This document shows, in pieces, positions 39,331 through 60,651 of a stretch of DNA of 64,000 nucleotides. This stretch comes from Candidatus Calditenuis fumarioli (GTDB lineage Archaea > Thermoproteota > Nitrososphaeria_A > Caldarchaeales > Calditenuaceae). The notes below the pieces were generated by a model that searched no databases, was not told where the DNA came from, and was given only the letters and a program-made list of their open reading frames with translations. The stretch covers positions 416,001 to 480,000 of the forward strand of contig JANVYR010000002.1 in NCBI GenBank assembly GCA_030059665.1, given 5' to 3'. Position numbers and translations under genes: made by a program. Position 1 is the first letter of the stretch. Each line of letters begins with the position of its first letter.

Positions 39331-39358
39331 ACACTGGTGATCTGTTCTCGGGCCAGCT

Positions 39359-39577
39359 TTAGGAAGCTAATCGTATACGCGAAAAATACCAAGCCATCAA
39401 CGTTACCAGACCTGTGAAGACCAAAACCAACGAGAAAAGGTACCACGATCTTATGTCCTGCCTGAAGAATTGGTGAGAAAGGTCCTCCAGCAATATTATT
39501 GCTATATAACCCATGAGGATAAGCGTAAGGGCCGTGAGCATCAACATCCTTGACGACAACCTCCAAAGACCTCTCAT
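39359..39577 (-). CDS. small 2-TM membrane protein
   Basis: Two hydrophobic helices; start overlaps the Kelch gene stop. Confidence 0.5.
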   Translation of the reverse strand: MRGLWRLSSRMLMLTALTLILMGYIAIILLEDLSHQFFRQDIRSWYLFSLVLVFTGLVTLMAWYFSRIRLAS

Positions 39578-40590: not shown

Positions 40591-40803
40591 AGCCCCCAGA
40601 ATCTTTCTCTACGCATTACCTTAAAATAATTGCTCGGTTTTGCGGCTTCATTAATCGTGGTACTTCCGGTTCGTGAGCCGGATAAGGGTCTTCCGAGATC
40701 GTCGTTGAAAGAGACACGCATCTTGATATCAAAAAAGGATAAGGGGACCGAGATCGCATAAAAGTCTAAGGTTTTTTTGAGCTCGTTATCCGGTTTGTCT
40801 ACT

Positions 40804-43035: not shown

Positions 43036-43155
43036 AGCGTAGAGGTGAAGTAAGAGGTCAATAGATAAGGATTTCCGATGGGAACTTAAATGGAATGTAG
43101 TGAACGTAGGGGTCCGCTGCCGCGGGCATCAAAGGACTTTAGATCTGCAGGGAAC

Positions 43156-44253: not shown

Positions 44254-44393
44254 GGCGCACCATCACCGCGCAGGATTCCCGGCCCTAAAATCTGTTCGCC
44301 GGTCGTCTCTTGATTTTCGGGACTACAGAGCTGTTAATCGCGAATATTTAAATAGGGATGAGCGCCTTTGCGTGCGAGATGGCACCAGACCGC

Positions 44394-45254: not shown

Positions 45255-45265
45255 GGGTGTGTTTC

Positions 45266-45778
45266 ATGGACGTACTGAAGATCTCTAAAATCTACTTCGC
45301 TCTTGGATTGCTAAACGGAGTTTTGGCTGCGGTGGCCACAGCCCTCATCCTGATACCTGAGCTGCGTCTGGCCGCTGGACCTGGCTCGATACTGACCCAT
45401 AACGTGGACGTCTGGCCCGGCGCCTGGGGTTGGGTATCGTACTTCGTGCTGCTGATCGCTGGCGTGGGTGGAGCTTTCCTTTGGTCGCTGAGCTACTACC
45501 TCCTCAGGCAGCTGTTCAACGTCGAGGGCGCCAACGCGCTCCTGTCGATCCTGTCCATGGCCCTTTACGAGATAGGGGTTCTGGGAACCGTCGGTCTCAC
45601 GGGCTACGTCGGGATCGAGGGAGGGAGGTTCGTGGCTGACGGCGGCTCCGCGATGGTGGTCACAGCGCTGATAGGGTGGGTCGTGATTCCCACCGGGCTC
45701 TCCGTAGGCGCCGCGGTGCTCGGCACCCTCCTCGGCATATTGAACCTGATAGCATCGGTTGTGCGCAGGAGACGATGA
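45266..45778 (+). CDS. 4-TM membrane protein (family of the 26000 gene)
   Basis: 'WPGAWGWVSYFVLLIAGVGGAFLWSLSYY'; ATG at 45266. Confidence 0.75.
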   Translation: MDVLKISKIYFALGLLNGVLAAVATALILIPELRLAAGPGSILTHNVDVWPGAWGWVSYFVLLIAGVGGAFLWSLSYYLLRQLFNVEGANALLSILSMALYEIGVLGTVGLTGYVGIEGGRFVADGGSAMVVTALIGWVVIPTGLSVGAAVLGTLLGILNLIASVVRRRR

Positions 45779-46290
45779 ATAAGCGGGGGTCTACACTCAT
45801 TGACCCACTCGTAGCTTCCAAGTACTTCCTGATCAACACGCTGATTAACGTGATTGCCTCAGCCCTAGTTGCAGCACCGGTCCTCGTAGCACCGCTCGCG
45901 CTACCGTTGAAACTCACCGTCTGGCCCGGGACCTGGATGTTCGTGGCCTATGCAGTCTTCGTAGGGTTCGGGACCATTGGGGCCCTCTGCTGGTCAGTCA
46001 TCTATTACCTGGCGAAGGTCGTGCTGGGAGTCAGCGCGCTTCGCAGGCGGCTGGTCGTCACGCACCTGCTGACGCACAACGCAGCAGCTTACGGTATAGG
46101 AGCGCTCATGGGATATGCTGTCGGGTACGTGGGCGGAACGGCTGCGATGCTCGGGTTCGGCCAGGCGGTGATAACGGCATTAGTCAGCTGGGCCGTGATC
46201 CCCATAGGTCTCATGGTCTTCATAGGGCTTCTGTCGGCGCTGCTCGGCGTATTCGCGTTGGTGGACGGAGCAGGGAGGTCTGAGGGTTGA
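45775..46290 (+). CDS. 4-TM membrane protein (tandem paralogue)
   Basis: 'WPGTWMFVAYAVFVGFGTIGALCWSVIYY'; ATGA overlap with the upstream copy. Confidence 0.75.
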   Translation: MNKRGSTLIDPLVASKYFLINTLINVIASALVAAPVLVAPLALPLKLTVWPGTWMFVAYAVFVGFGTIGALCWSVIYYLAKVVLGVSALRRRLVVTHLLTHNAAAYGIGALMGYAVGYVGGTAAMLGFGQAVITALVSWAVIPIGLMVFIGLLSALLGVFALVDGAGRSEG

Positions 46291-47747
46291 ACTTCAGGCT
46301 CAGCAGGAGGAGGTTCCTGACCGTCACTCTCTCCGCCGCTGCGACGGCGGCTCTTGGGATTTACTTCTTGACCAGCAACAGGAGCGGTAAGGGCTCCGAG
46401 AGGAGATCTGTTAGGGACCTGCTCGCGTCGCTGGGCAGGAGCGACCTCAATCCGCGCTACCTGGCCTTCCTGGAATGGTTGGCGGAGGTCTCTCCCCCCA
46501 TAGCGGGCTCGAGAACTTACGTGGCCTTGATGGCGGAGAGCACAGGGCTCGCCCTTCAGAGGATAGAGCGGGACTTCTACTACGCCTCAGGCGTGGACTC
46601 CAAACTGGACGTTTCCCCTTATCCGGTCCACGTGACGAAGACCCTCTCCGCGCTGAGCGTTGGAACTGCAATCCACGACCTGGTGGCAGTCGAGTCCTTC
46701 GATCTGGCCCTTTACAGACCCTACCTGACCGAGGTGGGAGGCCTTCCTGAGAGGTACAAGGATTACACCTACGATGGGTTCAGACTCGACGATTTCATCG
46801 GACCCTCCCTCGAACTGGTATGCTACTACCCTCCAGTTGGACCCAGGGAGAACAGGGTGCCGGTCCTCCTTCCCCTCAGCGCACCCACCATGATCCGCTT
46901 CTACAGGGCAGACCTCTACGAGAGGCTCGGAAGACCTCCCGGGAGGACATGGGACGAGCACCTCGAGGACCTCAGGGACCTCCACAACCCGACAGGCGGG
47001 ACCTTCGCGACGGCCATGCAGTTGGGGAGCGATGTCGGTGCCGTGACCGAGTTCAACAACCTGGTGTTCAGCTACGGCGGCAGGCTCTTCGAGGTCGGTG
47101 AAAGGGAGGTCGTACCAGTCATGGACAGCTCCGAGGTGGTCGAGGCCCTAGAGGTGTACTCGCGGATGAGGCCCTTCGCCGACCCGGCCTCGATATCGTA
47201 CGACTGGGACGCAGTCGCGAACGCGATGAGGAGGGGAAGGATAGCGACCGCCATCCTTTGGCAGGACTTCGCGTGGATGATGGACGACCCCGAGAGGTCG
47301 ACGGTGGTAGGCAAGGTGAGATACCTGAGGAACCCCGCGGGCCCCTCGGGAAGCTTCCATCAGTTCGTCGGCGACGGTCTGGGACTCACCAGGAACTCCA
47401 GGAACCGACTGGCCGCCTGGCTATGGCTCCAGTGGGCTACGGAGGTCGGCACCAGGATCGAGCTGATGCTGGATAAAAGGTCGCTCTCCATCCCCGTCAG
47501 AAGATCCGCCTTCGACGACGATTCCGTAAAGGCTAACATCGGACGGCGCGAATACGAGTCCGTTAAGGTGGTGAAGGAGGTGCTGGACTCGGGCGAGGTC
47601 GCCTACGTGCCTCCCACGATCAAGGCTAACCAGGTGATGTTCGTTTTGGCGAGGCACATCCGTAGCGCTTGGGCTGGCAGAGACCCCAGAACTGTGGCGA
47701 AGGAAATGAAGGAGGAGGTCGAGGCCCTTGGGCCGTTCACTTACTAG
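46287..47747 (+). CDS. sugar-type ABC substrate-binding protein with Tat-like signal
   Basis: 'LSRRRFLTV', 'FYRADLYERLG', 'AAWLWLQW' fit an SBP family 1 pattern. Confidence 0.82.
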   Translation: MNFRLSRRRFLTVTLSAAATAALGIYFLTSNRSGKGSERRSVRDLLASLGRSDLNPRYLAFLEWLAEVSPPIAGSRTYVALMAESTGLALQRIERDFYYASGVDSKLDVSPYPVHVTKTLSALSVGTAIHDLVAVESFDLALYRPYLTEVGGLPERYKDYTYDGFRLDDFIGPSLELVCYYPPVGPRENRVPVLLPLSAPTMIRFYRADLYERLGRPPGRTWDEHLEDLRDLHNPTGGTFATAMQLGSDVGAVTEFNNLVFSYGGRLFEVGEREVVPVMDSSEVVEALEVYSRMRPFADPASISYDWDAVANAMRRGRIATAILWQDFAWMMDDPERSTVVGKVRYLRNPAGPSGSFHQFVGDGLGLTRNSRNRLAAWLWLQWATEVGTRIELMLDKRSLSIPVRRSAFDDDSVKANIGRREYESVKVVKEVLDSGEVAYVPPTIKANQVMFVLARHIRSAWAGRDPRTVAKEMKEEVEALGPFTY

Positions 47748-48357
47748 ACTAACAGTCTTCCTTTTGGTCCCAGTCCTCGTCGCTGCAGGATCTAACGAGA
47801 TAGTTAACACGGTTAAGATTCAACTGGTGGACGCCATAGGGAGGAGCGAGTACTCGCTCACCGTCGAGATGCCGGATGAGGTACGTAGGGGCTCCCCCAT
47901 CAACCTGACCTTCACGCTGGTTCTGGAAAAGCTACCTCCGTTGAAGCACTATTCAGGCTACATATCCCTCACGTTCACGCTCATCTCGCCTGACGGCAGG
48001 ACGCTCGCCAGGCGCACCGTGACCACCAGGGATGATGCGTACAAGGTGGATTACGTCTATCCCGGCTACAGATGGGGGCCGTTCACGACGTCCATCATGC
48101 CAGATTATTCGATAGCCGCATCTGACTCAATAAGAGTCGTGGTGACGTTGGAGTCCGAGGAGTACGCGGAGGACCCACTCGGCATCCCAGTCATACCCAC
48201 CAGACCGACCCCGGCCGTGGTGGAGATCGGCACCGTGAGGGTCTCAAGCGACCACTGGTCCTACGTGACTCCACTGCTGCTCCTTTCAGTGGCGTTGCTC
48301 CTCGTATCTTGGACGGCTTTCCTTCTAAGGAGGAGATACAGGAAACTTCGCGCGTGA
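47728..48357 (+). CDS. hypothetical exported, C-terminally anchored beta-rich protein
   Basis: Signal-like N-terminus, alternating beta-strand pattern, C-terminal TM plus 'RRRYRK'. Confidence 0.55.
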   Translation: MGRSLTRLTVFLLVPVLVAAGSNEIVNTVKIQLVDAIGRSEYSLTVEMPDEVRRGSPINLTFTLVLEKLPPLKHYSGYISLTFTLISPDGRTLARRTVTTRDDAYKVDYVYPGYRWGPFTTSIMPDYSIAASDSIRVVVTLESEEYAEDPLGIPVIPTRPTPAVVEIGTVRVSSDHWSYVTPLLLLSVALLLVSWTAFLLRRRYRKLRA

Positions 48358-49820
48358 TGGACCTCATAGTAGAGGGCAAACGCCGCAGCGGTTAACGACA
48401 GTCCGGATCCGATGAGGAAGAACGTGTCCATCCCCTTAACGAACGATGAGATGTCTATCTCACCTCCAAGCAGGAACTTCTCGTATCCTATACTCAGATC
48501 CATCACCATCGAAGCGAACACCAGGCTGAGGGTCTGCCCGATGTGTCTCATGAAGCCCAGGAGACCGTTGACCTGTGCCCTCACCTCAGGTTGCACGGAC
48601 TCGAGTGCAGTGTTAGTGTTGGGTGCAGCGAACGTGCCTATCCCCATTCCGAGGAGCACCAATGAGACGGCTATGAACAGAATGGACGTATCAGCCGATC
48701 CGAAGGACAGCATCAGAAGCGATGTTCCGCTGACGAACAGCCCAAAGGTCATGACCTGAACGTGTCCGTACCTGTCGGATATCAGTCCGCCCAGAGGGGA
48801 GATCACGAGCACCGTGAGCGGAAGGACTGCGATGGTCATCCCTGTCTCGATGGGGTCCATCCCCTTGACAACGGTCAGGTAGAAGCTCAGAAGCACCCAT
48901 GTGGCGTGATGGGCCGTGTAAAGCAACAGGATCGAGACGCATGCGGATCGCAACCTGGTGTTGACCTTCAACAGCCTCAGGGGGATGACCTGATCGCTCT
49001 CACTCTTCCACTCGCTGAGGAGCGTCAGAGTCGTGAGGGCGGCACCCGCCAGCACGGGCACCCATGCGGGGAAGCTGACGTAGAAAAAGGGACGCGTGTA
49101 GAGACCGAAGAACCTGACCTCCTCCAGTAACAGCTCGATGGTGCCCTTGGTCATCGTCCACATGCTCACGCCGCCTATGAGCGCGAGCAGCCCGAAAAAG
49201 AGGAGGACTGCCCTGAACCAGTTCAAGCGCCCCGATGAACGAACGGGCCTGTTGCTCCTCGGGACCAGTACGACCGTGAGCGTTGCCGATGCCACGCATA
49301 TCGGGATGTTCACAAAGAACACGTCCCGCCAGCCCACCACGCTCGTCAGGGTCAGGATGACGCCCCCTAGAAGAGGACCCATGAGGAGGGCGAAGTAGAG
49401 GACTGCTATGTGGACGCCCATCGCCAGACCCCTGCCTTCCCCGAACAGATCGGAGATCAGCGCCCTGCTGTTGGCCAGCACGAAGGCCGCCCCCACCCCT
49501 TGTACCAACCTCGCGAACAGCAGCTCGTAAATGGTCTGGGAGCTGCCCGAGAGGAACGCTCCCAAGGCGAAGACGAGCAGCCCGAACGCGAAGAACTCCC
49601 GCCTTCCTAACCTGTCCGACAACGCCCCGAAGGTGGGCATGAAGACCGAGATCACCAGCAGGTAGATTATCGGAACCCACGTGGCTACGGTTATGTGGGC
49701 GTGGAGGTCCCTGCTGAGGGCAGGCAGTATAGCTGCCACAAGACCGGTGTCCAGCGGTGGCGGCAGGGTGCCGAGATTAACCGCCGTCGCCGCCAGCCAC
49801 CTTCTGACCTCTCCTCGCAA
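48261..49820 (-). CDS. MFS transporter, 14-TM DHA2 (EmrB/QacA-like)
   Basis: 'GALSDRLGRR' motif A, 'ARLVQGVGAAF', 'WRDVFFVNIPI', 'GGLISDRYG'. Confidence 0.9.
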   Translation of the reverse strand: MRGEVRRWLAATAVNLGTLPPPLDTGLVAAILPALSRDLHAHITVATWVPIIYLLVISVFMPTFGALSDRLGRREFFAFGLLVFALGAFLSGSSQTIYELLFARLVQGVGAAFVLANSRALISDLFGEGRGLAMGVHIAVLYFALLMGPLLGGVILTLTSVVGWRDVFFVNIPICVASATLTVVLVPRSNRPVRSSGRLNWFRAVLLFFGLLALIGGVSMWTMTKGTIELLLEEVRFFGLYTRPFFYVSFPAWVPVLAGAALTTLTLLSEWKSESDQVIPLRLLKVNTRLRSACVSILLLYTAHHATWVLLSFYLTVVKGMDPIETGMTIAVLPLTVLVISPLGGLISDRYGHVQVMTFGLFVSGTSLLMLSFGSADTSILFIAVSLVLLGMGIGTFAAPNTNTALESVQPEVRAQVNGLLGFMRHIGQTLSLVFASMVMDLSIGYEKFLLGGEIDISSFVKGMDTFFLIGSGLSLTAAAFALYYEVHHARSFLYLLLRRKAVQDTRSNATERSSSGVT

Positions 49821-51693
49821 GCCTCCTGCCTCCGAGCCTCAGAAGCGCGATGAACCCCAACACTATAACCCCTGCACCCACCACCAATAGCAGGAGCTCA
49901 GAGGAGCTGAGCCCGAATGGCCCGGGGGTCGCAACAGGCCCCACCAGCTTGAAGGCAGCAACGACGCCGGGCGTGTAGGTGCCCGCGAACTCACCCCCTC
50001 CCGAGGGTACTACCAGCACGGGTTCGCCCGATGCGTCGGTGCCGATGCTCACACCCGATGATCCGAGCCCTCCCAGCGAGATCCTCCTCAGGAGCCTTCC
50101 CGTCTCCTCGTCGAGCATGTACAGGATGCCTGCCCTGTCAACCGCGTAGACGACGCCCCCGCTCACGACCACAGAAGCCGCCTGATACCTGTTCGGCATC
50201 TCGAACTTCCACTTTATCGTCCTGGTCCTGAGGTCGACGGCGTACAGCGTGGAGTTTTGGGGTATCGTCGGATCGGGGAGGCTGATGTAACCGTCTATTA
50301 TCTGCCCCTTGTAGAAGACCTTTCCCTTGACTATTCTGTGGCAGGCCCTCTGGGAGGCGACGAAGAGGACACCGTCGTGATAGGCGGGCGGTTCCTCGAC
50401 CCCGCCTTGAGCTCCGGGGCAGTACGTCTTGCCAGCCAGGACCTCAGTGGAGAGGCCCATGTCGGCTCCGTTCCCCATGTTCACGTTGTGGACGTTCATC
50501 TCGCGCCATCCCACCTTAATCGGCTCGTACACGGGCTCGCCTGTCCGCGCGTCCAGGACGTAGATGTAGTCCGCCTTAGACGCGGCTATGACGACCTTCC
50601 TCTTGGCCCCGCCAACCTCAAGCTCAGCGAGGATGACGCTCCACCCGGGCTCCAGGGGGACGAGGGCGTGCGGCATGACCTGATAGTACCATTTCAGGTC
50701 ACCGGTCTTCGCATCTATTGCAACGATGGACATGGTATACAGGTTTGGACCTGGACGAAGCGAGGCGTCGTAGTAGGGAGATGGCTGTCCAACAGAAGCG
50801 TATAGCGTCCCCTCCTCCTGGTCGATGGCTATCAGGCCCCATAACGCCCCACCGCCTATGAGGTCTGTCGTTCCCCAATCACCGGGGAAAGGTCTGATGT
50901 TGCCCCTAGTCTTTCCCTCGAAGAGTCTCCCGTCCCTCTCGACCACGTACTTCGCAGACCAGTCAGGGTCCCCTCCTACCGGTGGAACGGTGTACCAACG
51001 CCATACCAGCTTCATGTCCCGGAGATCGTATGCTGCGAGGAAGCCCCTCCCGCCGAAGCCCGCTGTGGAAGCCCTCACTATCAGAAGGTTATCGTAGACG
51101 ATTGGTGCCTGCTCTCCCCAGTAGTAACCGGTGTTCCCTGGGATGTCGCACACAACCTCCCCTGGAACGCGCCTCAGCAACCTCCCTGTCAGCGCATCTA
51201 GCACGTGGATCGAGCAGTCCGATGCCATCATCAGTATCGTGTTGTTGTGGTACCAGATGCTCTTCTGGTTCGCGACGTACGCCCAGTAGGGCTTACCCGT
51301 GAACTCGCTCATGTTTACCTGATATGACCAGATGGGTGTTCCGGTGTCGGCCCTCAGCGCGATCACTCTATTGTATGGTGTGGCGAAGTAGACGATGCCG
51401 TTCACTATCAGCGGCGTGGTCTCGATGCCCTGGAGAGGTGCCAACGAAGGTATCCTGAAGGGGTTCTCAGGCACCTGATATAGCCAGACCAGCGCGAGCC
51501 TCCCTACGTTCTCCCGGTTTATGAGGTTCTGGGGACTGTAATTGGTGTTGCGGAGGTCGTACGCCGGATACTGCCAATTATAGGTCTGCTGAGCTGAACC
51601 GGTCGTTAGAGGAGCCCACGTCGCTAAGAGGATCAGTGTTAGGAACGCCGTTCCGATGAGGAGCCTGAGAGCGCCGGAAACGGAGGGGCGCAT
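49777..51693 (-). CDS. PQQ-dehydrogenase-like beta-propeller protein #6 with degenerate HD.WDxD motif
   Basis: 'GGGALWG', 'LRPGPNLYTMSIVAIDAKTGDLKWYYQVMPHALVPLEP'; signal peptide and C-terminal TM. Confidence 0.83.
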   Translation of the reverse strand: MRPSVSGALRLLIGTAFLTLILLATWAPLTTGSAQQTYNWQYPAYDLRNTNYSPQNLINRENVGRLALVWLYQVPENPFRIPSLAPLQGIETTPLIVNGIVYFATPYNRVIALRADTGTPIWSYQVNMSEFTGKPYWAYVANQKSIWYHNNTILMMASDCSIHVLDALTGRLLRRVPGEVVCDIPGNTGYYWGEQAPIVYDNLLIVRASTAGFGGRGFLAAYDLRDMKLVWRWYTVPPVGGDPDWSAKYVVERDGRLFEGKTRGNIRPFPGDWGTTDLIGGGALWGLIAIDQEEGTLYASVGQPSPYYDASLRPGPNLYTMSIVAIDAKTGDLKWYYQVMPHALVPLEPGWSVILAELEVGGAKRKVVIAASKADYIYVLDARTGEPVYEPIKVGWREMNVHNVNMGNGADMGLSTEVLAGKTYCPGAQGGVEEPPAYHDGVLFVASQRACHRIVKGKVFYKGQIIDGYISLPDPTIPQNSTLYAVDLRTRTIKWKFEMPNRYQAASVVVSGGVVYAVDRAGILYMLDEETGRLLRRISLGGLGSSGVSIGTDASGEPVLVVPSGGGEFAGTYTPGVVAAFKLVGPVATPGPFGLSSSELLLLVVGAGVIVLGFIALLRLGGRRLARRGQKVAGGDGG

Positions 51694-51806
51694 CACCTCA
51701 GTCGGATCGGTAAGCGCTCTATTAGCGCTTCGCTCCAACCGTCATGCCGTCCAAATTTGGACTACAGGGGAATGCTTATCAAGACCTCTCATGGTAGTGA
51801 TGCAGG

Positions 51807-52277
51807 ATGAGGGCCACCACATCCCTCCTCATGGTATCGATCGTTTCGGCAGCGGTCGTCATGCTCTACGCGTTGCAACCGTTTTTGGGGACGGGAACCA
51901 AGGCTGGAGAAGTCACGGCCGCAGATGCCTCGTCGTTGTATGAGAGGTTGTCCGGGAAGTCGCCCAACGAGGTCTTCGAGGCGATTGACAAGTTATCTGA
52001 TGCGGAGTTCAACGCGTTGCTCAACTCCATTAAACCGAGGTTTGCCACCGCACCACCTTTCAGGTGTACGCCAGATATGAGCGCTAGGCTGTGCGCACTC
52101 CTGCAGAGGAGCAGCGCCAACGGGCAGAGAGAGCCATGGGAGTTCTGCTTCAACGAGCCCTTCGACGCCGGATGCCCAGCCGCCACCTACTGCGACATTT
52201 ACACCGGAAGGTGCCAGAGCTCTCAAGGACCCTGCTTCCTGGACCAGGCGAGACAGGCCTTCGAGCGCGGCGGGTAA
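51807..52277 (+). CDS. exported/anchored small protein with 7-Cys C-terminal domain
   Basis: Hydrophobic N-terminus; seven Cys in the last 70 aa; first gene of a three-gene unit divergent from propeller #6. Confidence 0.6.
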   Translation: MRATTSLLMVSIVSAAVVMLYALQPFLGTGTKAGEVTAADASSLYERLSGKSPNEVFEAIDKLSDAEFNALLNSIKPRFATAPPFRCTPDMSARLCALLQRSSANGQREPWEFCFNEPFDAGCPAATYCDIYTGRCQSSQGPCFLDQARQAFERGG

Positions 52278-52282
52278 CTGCC

Positions 52283-52900
52283 TTGGAGCGGTACAGGCTA
52301 GCAGCGCTCGGAGCGTTGGCTATATTGATCGTTGTGTCGGCCCTGCTCTCTGCGGACTTCAGTCCCTACAAACTTAGACCGGTAAAGACGTTTTACGTCG
52401 TTGCGTATAAGTGGGGATACGTCTTCTACGATTCGCAGTTCAACGAGATACCTTACATGGCCGTGAACAGGGGCGATGAGGTGGAGATTTACCTCATACC
52501 GGCGTCCCAGATAATCAGAGACCCGATACTCTCTGTCAGGATGAACGCCTACGTCGAGTACGAGAACAGGACTCGGTGGAGTGGCATCGGCCCACTTCCT
52601 CCGAACGACCCCAGGATAACTGAGGAGATAGTAGCGAGCCACGACCTGCCCGATCACTCGATGTTCATAGAAGGGTACAACGTAGTCGTCATCACATGCG
52701 ATGAGTGCGCGAAATCCAGGGAGGGCGAGACACATAAGGTCAGGTACAGCATAAGGCAGGTTCTGGAGGAGGCAAGGGCATCGGTCGGATACGTGAGGTT
52801 CGTGGCTGATAAACAGGGGAGCTTCGACGTTTACTGCACGATTTACTGTGGTTTCGGGCATCAGTACCAGAGGGTGAGGGGGGCTTTCGTGGTTAAATGA
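52283..52900 (+). CDS. CuA-type cupredoxin (cytochrome oxidase subunit II C-domain-like)
   Basis: N-terminal TM; 'DHSM'; 'YCTIYCGFGHQYQ' matches C-x3-C-x3-H with Gln where Met is usual. Confidence 0.8.
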   Translation: MERYRLAALGALAILIVVSALLSADFSPYKLRPVKTFYVVAYKWGYVFYDSQFNEIPYMAVNRGDEVEIYLIPASQIIRDPILSVRMNAYVEYENRTRWSGIGPLPPNDPRITEEIVASHDLPDHSMFIEGYNVVVITCDECAKSREGETHKVRYSIRQVLEEARASVGYVRFVADKQGSFDVYCTIYCGFGHQYQRVRGAFVVK

Positions 52901-53730
52901 GGAGCGGGTCAGTAACTGCACGTTGGAAGTTCAGCTCCGCATTGCTGTGGGCGATCTCGACTTTCGTCGGGTCATTCGCGATATCCCTCTTCGTCGACGA
53001 CCTTGCAATGAGCCTGAGGATCTGGCTTGACAACAGGATTGGCTCTCCGGGCCTCAGCATCCTAGCGTACAACTCGGTTCACTACCTGCTCTTTCAGCTG
53101 GCGGTGATACTGCTGCTCATTGGGGTCACTGGCGGTACTAGGAAGACCGCTGGCAGAGCATTGATCTTGCTCTTCGCGATAACCGCTGGGAAGCTAGCTG
53201 GGAGGTCGTTCTCGGAGCTTTCCCCCACGCTTTCGCAAGCGGCGTTCTCCATAGTCGTATCGACGGCGCTGAGCGCTTCAACTATAGTTCTGTCGGAAGA
53301 CCTTCTTGGTGACGGTGAGGGCCGGAAGTCGGACCCGCCGTACTTCCTCTGGACCGCAACCTTCGTGGCTGTGACCTTCTGGTTCGCTGCTTTTCCCTTG
53401 GTAGACAGGTTCGGTAACCCTGACATCTCCAACGCCACAAGGATAGGCATGGTTTTGACGCTAGCAGCTCTCGGCTACCTGGGAACGAGGGGGGTTAAGA
53501 TCAGATGGACGCTACTGCCCCTGGGGACTATGACCGCTTATTTGACCGTGGCGCTCCTCGTGTCGAGCCTCCTCGCTGACGTCTTAACAGGTACGAGAAC
53601 GCTGGCGTCGCTGCCCCCAGTGGAGCTGATCCTATACGCGGCCTCCAGGGCCCCTTTGGCCTTCTACCTCTCGATGATCGGTGTAGCTGGGAACTTCGTC
53701 AGGCGACTACTCGCGTCACGACCTGATTAG
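52897..53730 (+). CDS. polytopic membrane protein of unknown function
   Basis: About 8 hydrophobic helices; ATGA overlap with the CuA gene. Confidence 0.65.
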   Translation: MRSGSVTARWKFSSALLWAISTFVGSFAISLFVDDLAMSLRIWLDNRIGSPGLSILAYNSVHYLLFQLAVILLLIGVTGGTRKTAGRALILLFAITAGKLAGRSFSELSPTLSQAAFSIVVSTALSASTIVLSEDLLGDGEGRKSDPPYFLWTATFVAVTFWFAAFPLVDRFGNPDISNATRIGMVLTLAALGYLGTRGVKIRWTLLPLGTMTAYLTVALLVSSLLADVLTGTRTLASLPPVELILYAASRAPLAFYLSMIGVAGNFVRRLLASRPD

Positions 53731-54843
53731 CAATGGGATGACCTCGTTAACGAGCATCTCTGCAGTCCTCAGCGACTCTGAGTAGGACAGGTCCCCGAAG
53801 CGAGTCAGCAATACGAAGGAGTTGGCGCCGGACTCGGCCAACGACCTCCTCATTTGGGCCGCCACACGATCTGGCGCCCCGATGAAGGCGATTCCCCGAT
53901 TAACTGCGTACTCAGCTGCATTGTTGCCATCTATTACGTTGGTCTTCAGCTCATTCAACAAAAAGTCATCGATCGGGGTGGAACCGGTGAAGGCCCTAGT
54001 CCACCTTACGGACCATTCGCTGAAGAGATACTCCAGGTGGCGTTTGATTGCCACCTCACCCCTTTGCCTAGCCCTGTGGTCGTCTTTGTCCACGAGAACG
54101 AGCTTCGAGAGGGACAGATAGGGGCCTTTCCTGTTGACCGAAGTGGATGCTCTCGATTCGAACGTTCTTCTGTAGTGCTCGAAATGCTCTCTGGTGGTCC
54201 CCCTCAACCAGCTCAACCACCCCCTCACTATGTTGTAGCCGTTTTCAGCAGCCCATTCTACAGCCTCCCTCCTCCTTACGGGGAACCAGAGAGGAGGATG
54301 CGGTCTCTGATAAGGCATTACGGGCGGCAACACGTCCTCGAACTCGTAATATCTCCCCTTGAAGGAGAACCTGGCCCCTCCTGATTTGAAATATTCTATC
54401 AGGAACCTTGTGGCCTCGATGCTCATCTCGCGGGCAACCTCCGGGTCCAGTTTCATGCAGGCTAGGGCCCTGCTCCCGACGTCCACCCCGCTCCCCACCC
54501 CCAACTCGAGTCTGCCCTTGCAGAGGTGATCTAACATTGATACTTCCTCCGCCAACAACAGCGGGCTCCTCATGGGTAGGACGTAGACGAGGGCACCGAG
54601 TCTAACGCGGCTGGTCCTCTGCGAAGCAGCAGCAATTATTGCGGGCTGAGACGGAGAAGGCCTGCTGGGGTTAACGTGCTTCTCGGTGAAGAAGACCCTC
54701 TTCAGTCCTATCTCTTCAAGGGCTTTGACGTGCTCAAGTTCCATATCATAAAGCTCGTGTAGCTGTTGTTTTGATCCGGCAATTGATATCCTAATTAGTA
54801 CCGAGAAGGCTTCAAGATCTAGGTCCTCAATAGTGGGGATCAC
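53716..54843 (-). CDS. LLM-class flavin-dependent oxidoreductase
   Basis: 'FTEKH', 'RTSRVRLG', 'LLAEEVSMLDHLCKGRLELGVGSG', 'PHPPLW'. Confidence 0.9.
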   Translation of the reverse strand: MIPTIEDLDLEAFSVLIRISIAGSKQQLHELYDMELEHVKALEEIGLKRVFFTEKHVNPSRPSPSQPAIIAAASQRTSRVRLGALVYVLPMRSPLLLAEEVSMLDHLCKGRLELGVGSGVDVGSRALACMKLDPEVAREMSIEATRFLIEYFKSGGARFSFKGRYYEFEDVLPPVMPYQRPHPPLWFPVRRREAVEWAAENGYNIVRGWLSWLRGTTREHFEHYRRTFESRASTSVNRKGPYLSLSKLVLVDKDDHRARQRGEVAIKRHLEYLFSEWSVRWTRAFTGSTPIDDFLLNELKTNVIDGNNAAEYAVNRGIAFIGAPDRVAAQMRRSLAESGANSFVLLTRFGDLSYSESLRTAEMLVNEVIPLLIRS

Positions 54844-55167
54844 TCAGTCCCCCCTAAAGGGCGATATGTGGGACTATCATTTATAATTTTCATCAAGTGG
54901 TTTAATTCGCACATCTTTCGCGCTCATATGTCGTCAGTCCTCGGAATTCCCCTTGCGATCAGACCGAAAAACCCCGTTGTTACCTAGGATTTGTTGCACG
55001 GTTAATCAGCAGTCTTGTTACGTCTCGCCTATCAAGCCTCAGAACATATAATCATTGAGCTCCAATATCTACATGCCTATTAAAGCAGCGATAAGTTAAT
55101 GGAGGAAACCAATAGCTCACCCCTTGTTTCAAATCACACGAGACTAACGGGTCCTCAGGACATGCAT

Positions 55168-55896
55168 TTATATGTTTTTTATCAAGTAAGTATAATGTCT
55201 TCTTAAACTATGGTCTGGATACTTCTTCACGACGACTTTACGGTTTAGTAGATTGCTAAACAAACTTTCTATAAAAGCCAAAAGAACATCGTCCACTCTG
55301 ACATCGAAATCGGTGAATCCCATGAACCTATTCACACGCAACAAGTAGTTATGTTTAATTCGGGTTAATGATATATCGGCATCAAAAATTTCCTTAAAAA
55401 TAGCTAATGCTGACACGCATCTTTCATTCGTCTTATGTTTTGTATGGGTTAGAACAAATTTTGCCAACCTGTTGCCTAACTCCCTCAAGAAAACAGAACT
55501 ATGATACGAGTAGAATGGATCAAGCAGACGGAACGCATGGAACAAAGCATTTACTACGATATTTCTGATGACAACATTCGCATTCATTTCTATGAAATTC
55601 ATATCATTGTGATGACTTAATTGCGTTGTGTTGAAAACATCCAGTATCTTTTTCATAAGCTCCTCCCTTTTTGAGAGATCAGGCGCAGAGAGAAAACTGT
55701 ACTCGATCAACCTTTCAATTCGCGCGAGATACTTGACTGCTTTACCAGTTCTGATCCTTATAGCTAGCCCATCATTCGTTAAGGACTTCAGGTGATAATG
55801 AACTAGTTGTCTGTCCACACCTAATTTTCTGGCAATTTCGCTGGCAGCCATGGGTTCCCTTACAATTGAGAATAGCACCGCGAGGCTCTGCCTCAC
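55168..55896 (-). CDS. ArsR-like HTH regulator with C-terminal V4R-like domain (AT-rich)
   Basis: 'ASEIARKLGVDRQLVHYHLKSLTNDGL' HTH; C-terminal 'FLRELGNRLA...LLAFIESLFS' is V4R-like; start uncertain. Confidence 0.7.
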   Translation of the reverse strand: MRQSLAVLFSIVREPMAASEIARKLGVDRQLVHYHLKSLTNDGLAIRIRTGKAVKYLARIERLIEYSFLSAPDLSKREELMKKILDVFNTTQLSHHNDMNFIEMNANVVIRNIVVNALFHAFRLLDPFYSYHSSVFLRELGNRLAKFVLTHTKHKTNERCVSALAIFKEIFDADISLTRIKHNYLLRVNRFMGFTDFDVRVDDVLLAFIESLFSNLLNRKVVVKKYPDHSLRRHYTYLIKNI

Positions 55897-55951
55897 GTCA
55901 AAATAATTTTTACAAATATATATATATAAAGATTCGATGATGTGACTCGGG

Positions 55952-57190
55952 GTGAGGGTTATGAGCCCTAGGTTCAGTCTGGTCCTGTCTTCAGTTGCCC
56001 TGATTGCCGCGATAATCGTCGCAGGGTATGTGGTCGTGCTCTCAGAAGGTTTAAGGAACGACGTACGAAGATCGGTAAACGACCTCACCAGCGACCTGAA
56101 GTCGGTGTCTGATAGGCTGCAAACCCTCGAACAGCTGATCAACCTGTACGCGCGGGCCGCTGGGATAGAGTCCCCAGCTCAGGCCGAACAGCTCATTAAA
56201 GAGAGACAGGAGCTTCAGGCCAAAATAGAGGGAGCCAGGAGGGAAAGCGGTACCCTGCGCATTTACGGCAGCGTTGATTTCAGGGACGTCAAGTCATTGA
56301 TCGACGCTTTCCAGGCAAGATATCCATTTATAAAAGTGACTTACGAAGAGATGAGACCGCCAGAGGTTTACACAAGGGTTACCAGCGAACTCGCCGCCAA
56401 CAAGCCCACCGCCGACATTGTGATAATCAGTCATACGACTGGTGTAAGGCTAGCAGCAGAGGGAAGGTACATGCCCTATGTTTCGCCGGAGTCTAAGTCT
56501 TACCCCGACTCTTTAAAGGATAAAGACGGTCTTTGGACGGCTTTCGTACTGCTACCCATATCACTCGTGTACAATACAAAGCTGGTCAAACAAGAAGAGC
56601 TTCCCAGGACTTTGGAAGAATTAGTGAACCCTAAATGGAAGGGAAAAGTCGTAATGCATGACATCACTCTAGGAACGGTGGGAACCCAGTGGCTGGTTTC
56701 TCTGAAGAGTTATGTAGGTGAGAGTAGGTGGAATGAGTTCGTAAATGGGCTTCTGAATTTGAAACCAGTCCTTGACATCGCGGTTTCTGCTGTTGCGGAA
56801 AAGGTTGCGGCAGGCGAATACCCCATTGGTATCATAACCAACCTACACGACGTGGTTCGATTAAGACTTCAGGGGGCTCCGGTGGACTACTTCCTTCCGG
56901 AAGGCGTCCCGTTGCTTACGTCCTTCTCTCACATCGCCATCATTAAGACGACGCAGAACCCCAATTCAGCCAAGCTCTTCGTCGACTTCGCCCTCTCACA
57001 GGAAGGTCAGGTCATAATAGGTAACGTGCCCGTGAGGTTCCCGGCAAGACCAGGAACTCCGGCCGACTTCGCATTGGAGAAGGTCCTGAAACCGGGCATC
57101 AAGATCGAACCTTATCCCACGCAGGAGGCAGTTGAGAAGGCTAGACAATGGGCTGACGAGTTCAAGAAAATGGGCTTCGGTTCTAAGTAG
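55952..57190 (+). CDS. Fe3+/thiamine-type ABC substrate-binding protein with TM and coiled-coil stalk
   Basis: 'GTLRIYGS', 'LVYNTKLV', 'LVNPKWKGK', 'NPNSAKLFVDFALSQEGQ'. Confidence 0.85.
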   Translation: MRVMSPRFSLVLSSVALIAAIIVAGYVVVLSEGLRNDVRRSVNDLTSDLKSVSDRLQTLEQLINLYARAAGIESPAQAEQLIKERQELQAKIEGARRESGTLRIYGSVDFRDVKSLIDAFQARYPFIKVTYEEMRPPEVYTRVTSELAANKPTADIVIISHTTGVRLAAEGRYMPYVSPESKSYPDSLKDKDGLWTAFVLLPISLVYNTKLVKQEELPRTLEELVNPKWKGKVVMHDITLGTVGTQWLVSLKSYVGESRWNEFVNGLLNLKPVLDIAVSAVAEKVAAGEYPIGIITNLHDVVRLRLQGAPVDYFLPEGVPLLTSFSHIAIIKTTQNPNSAKLFVDFALSQEGQVIIGNVPVRFPARPGTPADFALEKVLKPGIKIEPYPTQEAVEKARQWADEFKKMGFGSK

Positions 57191-57221
57191 GTTACTTACA
57201 ATCAATTAGAGGTCCAAATTT

Positions 57222-58904
57222 ATGGATCGTCCCATAATTCACAGGATACTGAAGCTTGCGCTTTTTGCCCTAGTCGTCTTGCTAGTATTATTACCAGTTG
57301 TATTCCTACTGCTCGCAAGCATAGGATTGGGACCTTTGGGACCTAAGACTAACATCACGCTAGGGAACTATCTAGCGGTATTAGAGGATCCATTTTTCGC
57401 GTCATCGCTGGTAAACAGCATCACTTTTGCTGCCCTCTCCTCATTAGTTGCAACAGGTCTCGGGTTCGTCCTGGCCTTCATCAACAGAGCGACTGATGCC
57501 CCTCTGGCTAGTGTTCTCCGCTCGGTGATGGTTGCAATGTTGGCAATGCCCAGCTTCCTTGAAAGCATCGGATGGACGTTTTTACTTAGCCCGAGAGCGG
57601 GGTTAGTTAATGTCATTTACTCGCGACTAGTTGGGGCGCAGGAGCCGCTTTTCAACATATACTCTTTCGCTGGATTGGTCTTCGCCATGGGGCTGAACCT
57701 GACACCGGTGTCCTTCTTCCTCATCAGCCCAGCTTTCTCGCTCATCGATAAGACCTTGATAGAGATGTCGACCGTCTTCGGTGGCGGTCTCTGGCGCACC
57801 ATATATCGCGTATATCTGCCTATAGTTTTGCCTTCTATCGTCTCAGCTTACATCTACACTTTCATAATCGGACTTGAGGCCTTCGACACCCCCGCAATAA
57901 TTGGCATACCTGCCGGAATCTATGTCCTGACGACCTCCATTTACAAGAAGATGGTCAGCGATATCCCTCCAGATTACGGCGGCGCAACAGCATATGCGGT
58001 TTTCCTTGCAGCGTTGGCGTCGGTTGCCCTTTGGTCGTATAGGTTCGTAGTCGCGCATGCCGAAAAATACGGGTCATTAACGGGTAGGGCAGAAGTTTCG
58101 CCAACACTTAGGTTGGGAAGAAAGTTAAAGTTCACAATCACGTTAATTATCATGACATATCTTGTAATTCACCCTATATCGGTTGTTGGCGTGTTAATTC
58201 TAGCCTCACTTCACTCCTTCTGGAACCCTAGCGTGCTCTTTCAGAACATAACGCTGGAGAATTTCCTCCTGTTCCTGACATATCCCTTGTCGTGGGTCGC
58301 TGCAATAAACAGCGCATTAGTGGCGCTCATCACCTGCATAGTTACTGTCATAGGCGGCTTGATGGTTTCGTACTTTTGTTACAGGAGACCATTTAAGGGG
58401 TCACACACTTTCGCTCTCATAACATCGCTTCCGTTGGCCGTTCCTCCGATGGTCCTCGCAATAGGCGTCTACTGGACGGCCCTCTTCTCGAACGTCGGGA
58501 TCTATGGGACCGTATGGGCTTTGGTATATGCCTATTCTCTCAGATACCTTCCCCTTGTAGTTAGATTGGTAGTTGGTCCTCTACTGCAGATAGGCAGAGA
58601 GATTGAGGACGCAGCGAGGATTTACGGTGGAATTTGGCGAAGTTTAACCAGGGTTATATTACCTCTTATGCGTGGACCCCTAATTTACGCAGCAACGTAT
58701 GTGACTGTTATAGTGTTAACGAACCTCAGCGTGGCAGTCCTCCTCGTAACTAAAGAGTCGGTCGTTCTGTCGACAACGCTGTATTCGTTGTGGAATACAG
58801 GGGAGCGGCTCGAAGCAACTGCTGGTGGACTCTTGTATTTTAGTGTAACGTTATCGGTCGCTCTTATCGGTAATTCGCTGCTGACTAAAAGCGATAGGCA
58901 ATGA
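57222..58904 (+). CDS. FbpB-type fused ABC permease
   Basis: Two permease halves; 'IEDAARIYG' EAA motif; 'FDTPAIIG'. Confidence 0.87.
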   Translation: MDRPIIHRILKLALFALVVLLVLLPVVFLLLASIGLGPLGPKTNITLGNYLAVLEDPFFASSLVNSITFAALSSLVATGLGFVLAFINRATDAPLASVLRSVMVAMLAMPSFLESIGWTFLLSPRAGLVNVIYSRLVGAQEPLFNIYSFAGLVFAMGLNLTPVSFFLISPAFSLIDKTLIEMSTVFGGGLWRTIYRVYLPIVLPSIVSAYIYTFIIGLEAFDTPAIIGIPAGIYVLTTSIYKKMVSDIPPDYGGATAYAVFLAALASVALWSYRFVVAHAEKYGSLTGRAEVSPTLRLGRKLKFTITLIIMTYLVIHPISVVGVLILASLHSFWNPSVLFQNITLENFLLFLTYPLSWVAAINSALVALITCIVTVIGGLMVSYFCYRRPFKGSHTFALITSLPLAVPPMVLAIGVYWTALFSNVGIYGTVWALVYAYSLRYLPLVVRLVVGPLLQIGREIEDAARIYGGIWRSLTRVILPLMRGPLIYAATYVTVIVLTNLSVAVLLVTKESVVLSTTLYSLWNTGERLEATAGGLLYFSVTLSVALIGNSLLTKSDRQ

Positions 58905-58916
58905 CCAGATGCGTCC

Positions 58917-59810
58917 TTACTTCGTTAGTTCTAGTTGGCGTATAACATTTCGGGATGGGACTCCATCTATCAATTTTCTATTCAGCATCCAGCTTGCAGC
59001 ACTATATAGTTCTTCATATGTATAAGGTTCCCATAAATTCCATTTATCAATAAGATTAACATCACTAAGGTCTGGAAGGTCAATGCCAATCTCACTCGCA
59101 AGTTGCAGCAAGTACTCCTCACACACCTTGTTATATTTTAATGCCTCCTTATTTATAATTTTAATTGCCTTATTAATCGCGTATATGAGGCTCCGAACTA
59201 CCCCATCGCTCAACCTATTAGACACAATCAGTACTGTTGGTCTCGTCCTACGGAGTTTGACTAGCTCGATCATTCCGTATAGTTTGGCTATTCTGTTCCA
59301 CGGTCCGAGGAGGACGGCTGCATCTACGGTCCCTTTAATTAACGCCTGAAATCTCTTATGAGGTTCAGAAATGTTGACGAGCTTCAATTCCCGCTCCGTT
59401 ACAAATGGTTCTAAGGCTTCCAGCAAATTGTATTTAGAACCGGTACCTTCCTCTACAGCGACAGCTTTGTACTTAAGGTCCGTAAGCGTTCTGATGTCAG
59501 AACCTTTCCTTGCGAACAATGTGAAGCTCGAGTTCAACGTCTCATCGCCTGGCGGAGATTTTGCTACCGCTTTCCCGTCCTCAGATATCAACAACCTAGC
59601 AACTGCAACCCACTCACCACAATGGTAGAAGTCTGTAATACCATCAGCCATCGCCCTGACGTAAGCCGAGGTTTTGTCGGGATATTTCGGCAGTCTGTTC
59701 CATTCTATTAACAACCCTTGCTCTCTGAAGAAACCCTCTCTGTCCGCGATCAGCTCGGGCAGATACCAGTGAAATGCCGCCGGATTGACCGCATACCTTA
59801 CCGTTGTCAT
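58917..59810 (-). CDS. SsuA/TauA/NMT1-like binding protein without signal peptide
   Basis: 'IADREGFFREQGL', 'DIRTLTDLKYKAVAVEEGTGS', 'GTVDAAVL'. Confidence 0.75.
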   Translation of the reverse strand: MTTVRYAVNPAAFHWYLPELIADREGFFREQGLLIEWNRLPKYPDKTSAYVRAMADGITDFYHCGEWVAVARLLISEDGKAVAKSPPGDETLNSSFTLFARKGSDIRTLTDLKYKAVAVEEGTGSKYNLLEALEPFVTERELKLVNISEPHKRFQALIKGTVDAAVLLGPWNRIAKLYGMIELVKLRRTRPTVLIVSNRLSDGVVRSLIYAINKAIKIINKEALKYNKVCEEYLLQLASEIGIDLPDLSDVNLIDKWNLWEPYTYEELYSAASWMLNRKLIDGVPSRNVIRQLELTK

Positions 59811-59961
59811 CCCATCTGTTATGTATGAACAGTTATAAAAGGAATTTTTAGGGTAGGTGTCGGTTAAAATATAGCCAGCTCCTCAGCGCGTAGGATATTG
59901 ATGATGAGCGAGGGATATAAATATCTTCTGGGATAAGATGTCAAATCATTTTCAATCATCG

Positions 59962-60651
59962 TCATTGAGAAGTTACGATATATTTCATGTATATTGCGTC
60001 CAATATCGCCCACTGAACGTCGCAGTTGAATTTTGCCGCCTTTATGCATTTCTTTAACTGCTCGCTGGATAATATCTTCTTCTCAATAGCTCGTGAGACG
60101 ATCTCTATCTCTTCTGTCAGATAACTCATTCGCTGGTAAAAGAACTCTAACCCTTCAGGTTCGATCCACTCGTATTTCTCAGAAAGCGCTTTCAACCTTC
60201 GTGGTAACTCGTCTATTAACATGCTTTCTGCGAGCGTTGCAGACATCGCATACAACCAATTGGTGTGCCTGACAAAGTCGAGATAAGAATTGACCGCCAT
60301 CTTCACCCCAGGTATGATTTTTGATTTCTCTAGGACCTGTCTTGGAATGCCAGCAGCCTTAGCGAACTCAGCCCATCCCTCGACATCGCCGAGATAACCA
60401 CCCAGCCCCTCCCTCTTGGACAACCTGATCAACCAGAGCTTCCTCAGTTCGGGATCAGTGCATTTTGATAATATCATGGCGTCCTTCACAGGAACGCATT
60501 TGAGGAAATAGTAGCGGTTTACTATCCATCCCCTTAGCTGATGAGGTGTCAATTTCCCAGAATAAAGTAACTTCATGAATGGGTGATGCCAGATATACTT
60601 AGCCTTTAAGGCCTCCCTGACCCTTTCGGCTAGGTTCAATGAACCCGACAC
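59962..60651 (-). CDS. pqqC: PqqC homologue (TenA/PqqC heme-oxygenase-like fold), probably with altered active site
   Basis: 'HHPFMKLLYSGKL', 'NRYY', 'KDAMILSKCTDPELRKLW', 'YEWI', 'QWAILDAI' align by eye with PqqC hallmarks; the 'DHDG' His reads 'KREG'. Confidence 0.75.
   Translation of the reverse strand: MSGSLNLAERVREALKAKYIWHHPFMKLLYSGKLTPHQLRGWIVNRYYFLKCVPVKDAMILSKCTDPELRKLWLIRLSKREGLGGYLGDVEGWAEFAKAAGIPRQVLEKSKIIPGVKMAVNSYLDFVRHTNWLYAMSATLAESMLIDELPRRLKALSEKYEWIEPEGLEFFYQRMSYLTEEIEIVSRAIEKKILSSEQLKKCIKAAKFNCDVQWAILDAIYMKYIVTSQ

Follow-up and report, generated by a model that had tools for sequence, protein, structure and literature searches.

PqqC (EC 1.3.3.11; TIGR02111; PDB 1OTV, 1OTW, and 3HLX) is the closest described relative of the archaeal protein considered in this work. 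In PqqC, H24, H84, Y175, K214, and H154 serve acid/base chemistry and O2 activation. A second group of residues, R50, K60, R80, R157, and R179 together with Y128, are what we take to be the holders of the substrate and product carboxylates, as in the 1OTW structure. PqqC releases PQQ extremely slowly, a property that would make a catalytically silent PqqC well suited to PQQ binding.

PQQ binding without catalysis is also the task of PqqT from Methylorubrum extorquens (PDB 9B1U), a non-enzymatic protein that binds PQQ with nanomolar affinity and has been proposed to act in PQQ import by feeding an ABC importer; its K142 takes the position of the metal and faces the C5 carbonyl and the C7 carboxylate of PQQ (PMC11331073). 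Heterotrophic marine Thaumarchaea encode 4 to 19 PQQ dehydrogenases per genome and a lone “PQQ synthase,” and the genome paper that named this gene inferred that PQQ is made by the cells (PMC7300363).

Here, we consider a PqqC-like gene of the hot-spring archaeon Candidatus Calditenuis fumarioli. The window analyzed is the whole 64,000-nucleotide stretch between positions 416,001 and 480,000 of contig JANVYR010000002.1. The gene was originally predicted to encode a PqqC homologue that appears to have lost its catalytic residues and that binds, stores, or delivers scavenged PQQ for six propellers encoded in the same window or acts as an enzyme for a modified cofactor, with thiamine salvage as an alternative.

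Results

The window protein groups with PqqC in sequence, family models, and fold

The window protein matches Pfam TENA_THI-4 (PF03070; 3e-35), a family into which PqqC also falls and which includes TenA thiaminase II, a member of the same superfamily. Its best NCBIfam model is PqqC TIGR02111, with 179.7 bits against a curated equivalog cut-off of 240. The copies from five Candidatus Caldarchaeum genomes reach 222 to 238 bits with this model, and the score is thus below the cut-off in all six genomes that carry the gene. The second NCBIfam match, to the CADD subfamily model TIGR04305, amounted to 62 bits against a cut-off of 200. When the PDB was searched by sequence, the top matches came from PqqC of Klebsiella pneumoniae (E = 6e-40) and PqqC/D of M. 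extorquens (2e-34), with CADD/CT610 (~5e-11) and a single TENA/THI-4 protein (5e-3) among the lower matches.

The AlphaFold2 model of the protein (mean pLDDT of 96.3) has the seven-helix haem-oxygenase-like fold of PqqC. Foldseek ranked PQQ-bound PqqC first (1otw and 3hlx; TM of 0.89 to 0.91), followed by CADD (0.84) and TenA proteins (~0.7). The structural comparison with PqqC, TenA, and CADD that the original prediction had proposed as its check thus places the protein with PqqC and not with TenA, in agreement with sequence and family models. A CADD-type di-metal site was considered separately and excluded: since H23 is the only invariant His among the protein and its relatives, the site of three His, two Glu, and one Asp cannot form.

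These data bear directly on the thiamine alternative, according to which the protein would be a TenA-like thiaminase II that salvages thiamine pyrimidines together with an ABC importer and a protein of the NMT1/ThiY type. The TENA_THI-4 match is consistent with this idea, and so are two features of the neighborhood: an adjacent protein with an NMT1/THI5-like domain and a Thi5/ThiY-like fold, and a substrate-binding protein (SBP) that weakly matches the thiamine-binding model TIGR01254. However, sequence, family models, and fold all side with PqqC, and the closest relatives by sequence and structure are not TenA proteins, which makes thiamine salvage very improbable.

Catalytic residues are replaced, while the carboxylate-binding residues are kept

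Residue equivalences were derived from a phmmer alignment with K. pneumoniae PqqC (1otv/1otw/3hlx, native numbering). In the alignment with 1otv, eight residues of PqqC are kept: Y23 (Y19 in the window protein), R50 (R46), K60 (K56), R80 (R76), Y128 (Y123), E147 (E142), R157 (R152), and R179 (R174). The basic cage that holds the three carboxylates of PQQ/AHQQ in PqqC is therefore retained as R46, K56, R76, R152, and R174, plus Y123 and E142. Nine others are replaced: H24 (by I20), Y53 (F49), D83 (K79), H84 (R80), D85 (E81), T146 (A141), H154 (L149), Y175 (F170), and K214 (N209), so that the D83-H84-D85-G stretch of PqqC reads K-R-E-G. Y175, H154, and R179 are named as active-site residues in the titles of PDB entries 3hlx, 3hml, and 3hnh.

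The residue assignments of the original prediction had been made by eye. The formal alignment reproduced all of them, both the retention of R50, K60, R80, Y128, R157, and R179 and the changes of H24 to I, H84 to R (DHDG to KREG), H154 to L, Y175 to F, and K214 to N, and it revealed Y53F, D83K, and T146A in addition. The catalytic His/Tyr set is thus replaced rather than conserved.

Relatives of the gene were collected from five Candidatus Caldarchaeum genomes, close metagenome proteins, and ten metagenome contigs. A contig scan with a single protein query returned nothing; an alignment-based scan returned four named Caldarchaeum MAGs. The members of the resulting clade are 49 to 77% identical to the window protein. 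In the catalytic and O2-pocket set, they have fixed H84→R, H24→I/F, Y175→F, K214→N/S, and H154→L, and D83 is fixed as K/R. This pattern is common to all 13 to 17 clade members (six genomes and ten metagenome contigs), while the basic cage residues and Y128 align and are invariant in every one of them. In the copy from G024, a single-contig Caldarchaeum genome, a TGA lies directly before the conserved N-terminus, and there is no standard start codon until approximately residue 26. The reading frames are intact in 15 other loci.

The clade was compared with 65 full-length canonical-like PqqC representatives. H24, D83, H84, D85, G93, and T146 are conserved in 85 to 98% of this set, and all of them are lost in the clade. 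The H154 position is variable in the set (H/M/I), with H in about one-third of sequences, and the loss of H154 alone is thus a weak marker. Residues that are invariant and specific to the clade are M26, K27, Y30, Y86, D89, E148, P150, Y177, and E180; the newly fixed set comprises K/R79, R80, D89, E148, Y177, and E180. In a quick IQ-TREE run, the clade was monophyletic with 100% support and had a long stem. Rather than merely a dead pocket, the substitutions suggest one that was rebuilt with invariant Arg, Asp, Glu, and Tyr residues of its own. With such a pocket, a new enzymatic activity on PQQ-related or other substrates is possible.

Pairwise dN/dS values were 0.07 to 0.21 for non-saturated pairs, and ~70 positions were invariant across eight sequences that are 53 to 76% identical. 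Low dN/dS combined with a pattern fixed in all relatives means that the PqqC-like family is a remodeled family under purifying selection rather than a decaying gene. The gene stands alone, its catalytic residues are gone, and the G024 copy has an irregular start, all of which could be expected from a functionless relic of a lost pqq operon, but the dN/dS values, the many invariant positions, the fixation of the replaced positions themselves, and the intact frames elsewhere render decay scarcely credible.

The canonical PQQ synthesis pathway is missing

The genome that contains the window (1.57 Mb in three contigs) is 91% complete. A search of this genome with the PqqB model gave no match, and hits of the PqqE model did not exceed 72 bits against a cut-off of 381, which is the level seen in all 14 control genomes. 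No credible match to pqqA was found in it either; the best hit of the PqqA model (14.5 bits) had neither a start codon nor a Tyr and was rejected. The five Caldarchaeum genomes, one of which is a 99%-complete single contig, contain no pqqB and no pqqE above the cut-off. Over all of these genomes, pqqE scores stay at 77 bits or less against 381.

It had been stated that the window contains no pqqB, pqqD, or pqqE, and this was correct. The whole-genome search proposed along with that statement extended the absence of pqqB and pqqE, together with that of pqqA, to the 91% complete genome, but it also uncovered an orphan PqqD-family protein outside the window. The gene for this 86-amino acid protein, located 5 kb ahead of the window, has eRF1 and a methyltransferase as neighbors, which rule it out as part of a pqq operon. 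As far as gene content tells, the canonical PQQ pathway is missing in the genomes that carry the PqqC-like gene.

Relatives of the protein are labeled “pyrroloquinoline-quinone synthase” in databases. Since the family departs from PqqC in score, catalytic residues, and pathway context, this annotation is unwarranted. Judged by its sequence, the gene in Caldarchaeales cannot be a standard PqqC.

The protein could nevertheless still be a PQQ synthase, or catalyze another late step, in an unrecognized archaeal route. The roles of the His and Tyr residues would then fall to Arg80 together with the new Glu and Tyr, and the substrate would be an imported precursor (for example, AHQQ) or a product of other archaeal enzymes. 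The database names, the Caldarchaeum scores just below the 240-bit cut-off, and the intact substrate-binding cage fit such a route, as does the fact that these organisms need PQQ and have no other visible source gene. Single replacements need not be decisive either: PqqC with the Y175F change was crystallized with PQQ according to the title of 3hlx, and H154 is not conserved even in canonical-like PqqC. On the other hand, H84, H24, and K214, which are 85 to 94% conserved in the canonical-like set, are all replaced here together with D83 and D85; there is no pqqA, pqqB, or pqqE to supply the substrate; and none of the six genomes has a copy that reaches the equivalog cut-off. We consider a divergent synthase unlikely.

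The gene lies at the edge of a laterally shared quinoprotein island

The features of the locus are listed in Table 1. The six propellers of the original prediction are borne out: all six large propeller open reading frames match Pfam PF01011 (PQQ dehydrogenase propeller) with 80 to 187 bits. Four of them (p1, p3, p4, and p5) keep the catalytic Asp motif and the extra XoxF-type Asp (DxD), while p2 and p6 do not. The extra Asp is, we assume, typical of lanthanide-dependent XoxF enzymes. In the PDB, p6 matches XoxF 6dam (E = 2.8e-34) and quinohaemoprotein ADH and XoxF structures (~1e-34). With their Sec-type signal peptides and a C-terminal membrane anchor that has a basic tail, the propellers should face outward and fold outside the cell.

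Table 1. Features of the PqqC-like locus, with coordinates in the window.
Feature	Position	Strand	Remarks
Laterally shared island, ~38 kb	22212..60651	.	GC 0.536 versus 0.623 in the genome; syntenic with G024 (Ca. Caldarchaeum) 198.9–230.5 kb
Propeller p1	22212..24161	+	PQQ-dehydrogenase type; motif SHDLYDFDC; signal peptide and C-terminal anchor
Propeller p2	28594..30507	-	Motif PHDVYGYGC; second and third Asp missing
Propeller p3	30542..32932	+	Motif PHDIWDYDC
Propeller p4	33128..35344	+	Motif PHDLWDWDC
Propeller p5	40804..43035	-	Motif PHDLWDWDC
ABC ATPase with TOBE domain	43156..44253	-	Orthologue adjoins SsuA-like gene in G024
Propeller p6	49777..51738	-	Top PF01011 score, 187 bits; catalytic Asp motif absent (PHALVPLEP)
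Polytopic membrane protein of no known family	52897..53730	+	277 aa
Luciferase-like monooxygenase	53716..54843	-	Part of the block in the window's subclade alone (L036, L038)
MarR/ArsR-like winged-helix regulator	55168..56142	-	Long C-terminal domain; between PqqC-like and SBP genes in relatives' loci
Membrane-anchored SBP	55952..57190	+	412 aa; Fe3+/2-AEP/thiamine cluster; SBP_bac_6/1/8/11; exact start uncertain
Fused two-domain ABC importer permease	57222..58904	+	560 aa; BPD_transp_1 x2; PhnU2/FbpB-like; in all loci
Signal-less SsuA/NMT1-fold protein	58917..59810	-	297 aa; 152 bp downstream of PqqC-like gene, same strand
PqqC-like protein	59962..60651	-	GTG start; 229 aa; no signal peptide; catalytic residues replaced, carboxylate-binding basic residues kept

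Window positions 22.2 to 60.7 kb are syntenic gene for gene with G024, but rearranged. Genes common to both comprise the propellers, cupredoxins, an MFS transporter, a Kelch protein, and three ABC systems, and the PqqC-like gene and propeller genes are within 10 to 20 kb of each other in the syntenic island. The last 6.7 kb of the island have a GC content of 0.473. The PqqC-like gene is located at the island edge, and the island end adjoins a TnpB element. The island is absent from the six same-genus genomes searched.

Among 61 Caldarchaeales genomes, six have the PqqC-like gene, and these are exactly the six with PF01011 propellers; the six same-genus genomes and 8 of the 13 Caldarchaeum species have neither. 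Since the island moves as a unit, this co-occurrence represents a few independent events, not sixty. The class-level search took in only 76 Caldarchaeales genomes. An even sampling of the phylum (401 genomes, with no thaumarchaeal PqqC-like gene among them) showed the gene only in the same six genomes and never without propellers, while four other archaeal genomes had a PF01011 match without the PqqC-like gene. The exact co-occurrence with propellers in the 61 genomes and the physical linkage favor a PQQ-related but non-canonical role, as had been proposed.

A conserved block links the gene to an importer and a regulator

The genes for the PqqC-like protein, the MarR/ArsR-like regulator, the SBP, the permease, and the SsuA-like protein form a block that is present in all five Caldarchaeum genomes and, despite local rearrangements, in every metagenome contig long enough. 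Gene order varies: The PqqC-like gene is beside the SsuA-like gene in the window and beside the regulator gene elsewhere. In Caldarchaeum and in loci L039 to L043, the gene directly upstream of the PqqC-like gene encodes the polytopic membrane protein, for which an Atlas search found no family. From the position of its orthologue in G024, the ABC ATPase is the probable ATPase of the importer. The longest-ORF start of the regulator, which overlaps the SBP gene, is probably too far upstream.

The SsuA/NMT1-fold protein contains the invariant motifs DFYHCGEW, TLNSSFT, EPH, and LLGPW, and its matches to Pfam NMT1 and TIGR01728 are below cut-off. A signal peptide is absent in all six orthologues. 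Searches of the PDB with sequence and profile yielded marginal SBP matches only and did not reach PqqT, and an Atlas search yielded generic NMT1 clusters only. The AlphaFold2 model (pLDDT of 89.7) has a class II SBP fold of the SsuA/NMT1 type. Foldseek matched it to SsuA (TM of 0.71), Thi5 (0.61 to 0.64), and PqqT (9b1u/9ooz; 0.64 to 0.67, E = 1e-10), as well as to TauA, ThiY, and DszB, with 13 to 19% identity in all cases; the match to PqqT is no better than that to SsuA. By its predicted structure, the protein is in a fold class that also holds PqqT, the only known PQQ-binding SBP (PMC11331073), and is not specifically closest to PqqT. The PQQ-contacting residues of PqqT are T41, G112, K142, and N143. 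The original prediction had taken this neighbor as a pointer to thiamine salvage; it is better read, going by the model, as a cytoplasmic protein of the PqqT/Thi5/SsuA fold class.

In H. influenzae FbpA, a Tyr-Tyr pair provides the iron ligands. At the place of this pair, the SBP of the block reads TNLHD, which is invariant in eight sequences (the window SBP and seven orthologues). In the PDB, it matches best to 7f6e (E = 2.5e-29), which is named an “iron-binding protein.”

The composition of the block suggests another possibility, namely, that the ligand is some other anionic substrate delivered by the ABC importer. The PqqC-like protein would be an enzyme or binder acting with the SsuA/Thi5/DszB-fold protein and, in one subclade, with the luciferase-like monooxygenase, and its link to the quinoproteins would reflect membership in the same catabolic island, for example, in the assimilation of acids made outside the cell by the propellers. 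Indeed, the importer, the regulator, and the SsuA-fold protein, and not the propellers, are the closest and most constant neighbors, and in the window, L036, and L038, the monooxygenase gene belongs to the block as well. Enzymes are common among cytoplasmic proteins of the SsuA fold (the fold matches include Thi5 and DszB), the pocket has acquired new invariant Arg, Asp, Glu, and Tyr residues, and PF01011 propellers occur without the PqqC-like protein in the four other archaeal genomes. Yet, the retention of five basic cage residues and a Tyr across a divergence of 49 to 77% identity is hard to explain for an unrelated ligand, the PqqC-like protein never occurs without propellers in the 401 genomes, and many PQQ dehydrogenases together with a lone “PQQ synthase” are reported for heterotrophic marine Thaumarchaea as well (PMC7300363). 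We regard an unrelated substrate as possible but doubtful.

Discussion

Our best reading, to which we assign a probability of about 0.4, is that the PqqC-like protein is a PQQ-handling protein that salvages or holds the cofactor. It would be a neofunctionalized protein of the PqqC lineage that has given up the O2-dependent eight-electron oxidation of AHQQ to PQQ, and the block would be a cofactor-acquisition module for PQQ auxotrophs. The importer would take up either PQQ itself or a PQQ-derived polycarboxylate, for example, an adduct or a precursor. In the cytoplasm, the PqqC-like protein would bind the imported cofactor tightly, with R80, at the H84 position, replacing the Lys of PqqT or the metal of quinoproteins, and would either hold the cofactor and hand it on or subject it to simpler, non-oxidative processing. 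From there, the cofactor would have to get back to the outer face, the site of propeller folding; the membrane protein whose gene adjoins in Caldarchaeum is a candidate for this step.

This reading modifies the binding, storage, or chaperone role originally predicted. The link to PQQ rather than to TenA stands, but a simple cytoplasmic chaperone hand-off misfits exported propellers: with propellers outside the cell and a PqqC-like protein without a signal peptide, an export step is needed. The same need weighs against the PQQ-handling reading itself, since a cytoplasmic PQQ pool requires an unexplained export step to reach exported, anchored propellers, and PQQ could in principle be picked up outside the cell without import. 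Further points against PQQ handling are that the SsuA-like neighbor is as distant from PqqT as from SsuA and Thi5 (17 to 18% identity to all), that the best solved relatives of the SBP are called iron-binding proteins, and that four archaeal genomes have a PF01011 match but no PqqC-like protein. A protein that has gained so many invariant polar residues is also more suggestive of a working active site than of a passive binder.

A more elaborate proposal would make the block a complete archaeal system for obtaining PQQ without pqqABCDE. Its components would be the MarR-like regulator, the ABC importer, the membrane protein, the rewired PqqC, and the cytoplasmic protein of the Thi5/PqqT fold. 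The last two would jointly regenerate or finish PQQ from an imported precursor or environmental adducts, and the product would be re-exported to the lanthanide-type propellers at the surface. Both of these proteins have a self-sacrificing enzyme among their relatives (Thi5 and CADD), which makes single-turnover chemistry conceivable in such a scheme. We offer this proposal as speculation that is decidedly unlikely to hold in full.

In the literature, we found no description of the Caldarchaeales PqqC-like protein or its altered site. Our analysis narrows the question of archaeal PQQ supply to a few testable proteins, the PqqC-like protein, the SsuA-fold protein, the SBP, and the membrane protein, and cautions that a pqqC annotation alone is poor ground for inferring PQQ prototrophy. 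A finding that the PqqC-like protein is thermostable and naturally binds PQQ with high affinity, or that it is an enzyme of PQQ salvage, would add a new function to the PqqC/TenA/haem-oxygenase-like superfamily.

Compared to PqqC, the window protein scores below the family cut-off and has H24, Y53, D83, H84, D85, T146, H154, Y175, and K214 replaced; it is encoded beside an importer and a regulator and not in a pqq operon, and its genome is without pqqA, pqqB, and pqqE. Its identity to CADD/CT610, the self-sacrificing 4-aminobenzoate synthase, and to other haem-oxygenase-like di-metal oxidases is 21 to 22%. The lone, divergent PqqC-like proteins of marine and soil Nitrososphaerales (P0010/P0181 cluster, “uncultured archaeon W5-61a”) and the “PQQ synthase” of heterotrophic marine Thaumarchaea (PMC7300363) resemble the Caldarchaeales proteins in being archaeal, of the PqqC lineage, and altered at conserved positions. 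Their genomes are reported to encode numerous secreted PQQ dehydrogenases but none of the other pqq genes. However, these proteins form a separate branch of the tree and are altered differently: They keep H84, Y175, K60, R80, and R157 and lose R50, Y128, E147, and R179.

PqqT shares the fold class of the SsuA-like neighbor (TM of 0.64 to 0.67) and is unrelated in fold to the PqqC-like protein. PqqT is exported, while the SsuA-like neighbor lacks a signal peptide and is 18% identical to PqqT. The parallel with the PqqC-like protein concerns the binding site: K142 of PqqT is found where quinoproteins have their metal, and R80 of the PqqC-like protein is proposed to play a like role.

The end of the island and the PqqC-like gene

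GC content is 0.473 in the island's final 6.7 kb (window 54000-60700), where the genes for the regulator, the importer, the SsuA-like protein, and the PqqC-like protein are located; it is 0.536 in the rest of the island and 0.623 in the genome. The origin of this block may therefore be different from, or more recent than, that of the propellers. On its right side, the island is bounded by the gene for a 410-aa protein that matches no Pfam family, together with a short TnpB-like gene with a Cas12f1-like TNB domain. On the metagenome contig L034, the same 410-aa gene adjoins a nearly identical PqqC-like gene (100% in one comparison, 99.6% in another).

In the single-contig Candidatus Caldarchaeum genome (G024), the PqqC-like frame is directly preceded by TGA and contains no ATG, GTG, or TTG up to approximately residue 26; the upstream membrane-protein gene terminates in the same frame. 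C64, otherwise conserved, is replaced by I in this copy. Possible explanations are a sequencing error, an unusual start, or early decay.

An orphan RRE-type protein of the PqqD family is encoded in the window's own genome next to eRF1 and a methyltransferase, with no radical-SAM partner nearby. Within the island, a second SBP_bac_6-type binding protein shares ~30% identity with the block's own SBP and apparently lacks a signal peptide or membrane anchor.

Features and their coordinates (window positions unless a locus is named)
Feature	Coordinates	Strand	Remark
Second SBP_bac_6-type binding protein	24851-25864	-	
Propeller p3	30542-32932	+	
Cupredoxin	35349-35834		
Cupredoxin	36066-36551		
Propeller p5	40804-43035	-	
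Cys-rich secreted protein	51807-52277	+	156 aa
Membrane-anchored protein	52091-52900	+	269 aa; CuA-like C-x3-C-x3-H at its end
Right boundary (410-aa protein, TnpB-like gene)	60727-63059		
PqqD-family orphan	L026:6940-7200 = genome C2:410939-411199		86 aa; 5 kb before window
G024 PqqC-like frame	L023:8062-8790 = G024 C1:209061-209789		

Propellers and their putative partners

The N-terminal ~70 aa (from MERKSG...) and the C-terminal ~70 aa are identical in propellers p3 and p5, while their middle parts differ, which suggests recent gene conversion between these inverted paralogues. The long ORF of p3 begins ~48 codons upstream of the start common to both.

The Cys-rich protein and the protein with the CuA-like motif adjoin the block and are conserved there in all lineages. 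Together with the cupredoxins, they may accept electrons from the propellers.

The vicinal Cys-Cys of methanol dehydrogenases is absent from all propellers, as judged from the p6 alignment. Of the six propellers (window 22212-51738), p2 and p6 lack the PHD-x-W/Y-D-x-D motif, and p6 has the top PF01011 score of the six despite missing it. The other four keep this motif, which comprises the catalytic Asp and the XoxF-type lanthanide Asp.
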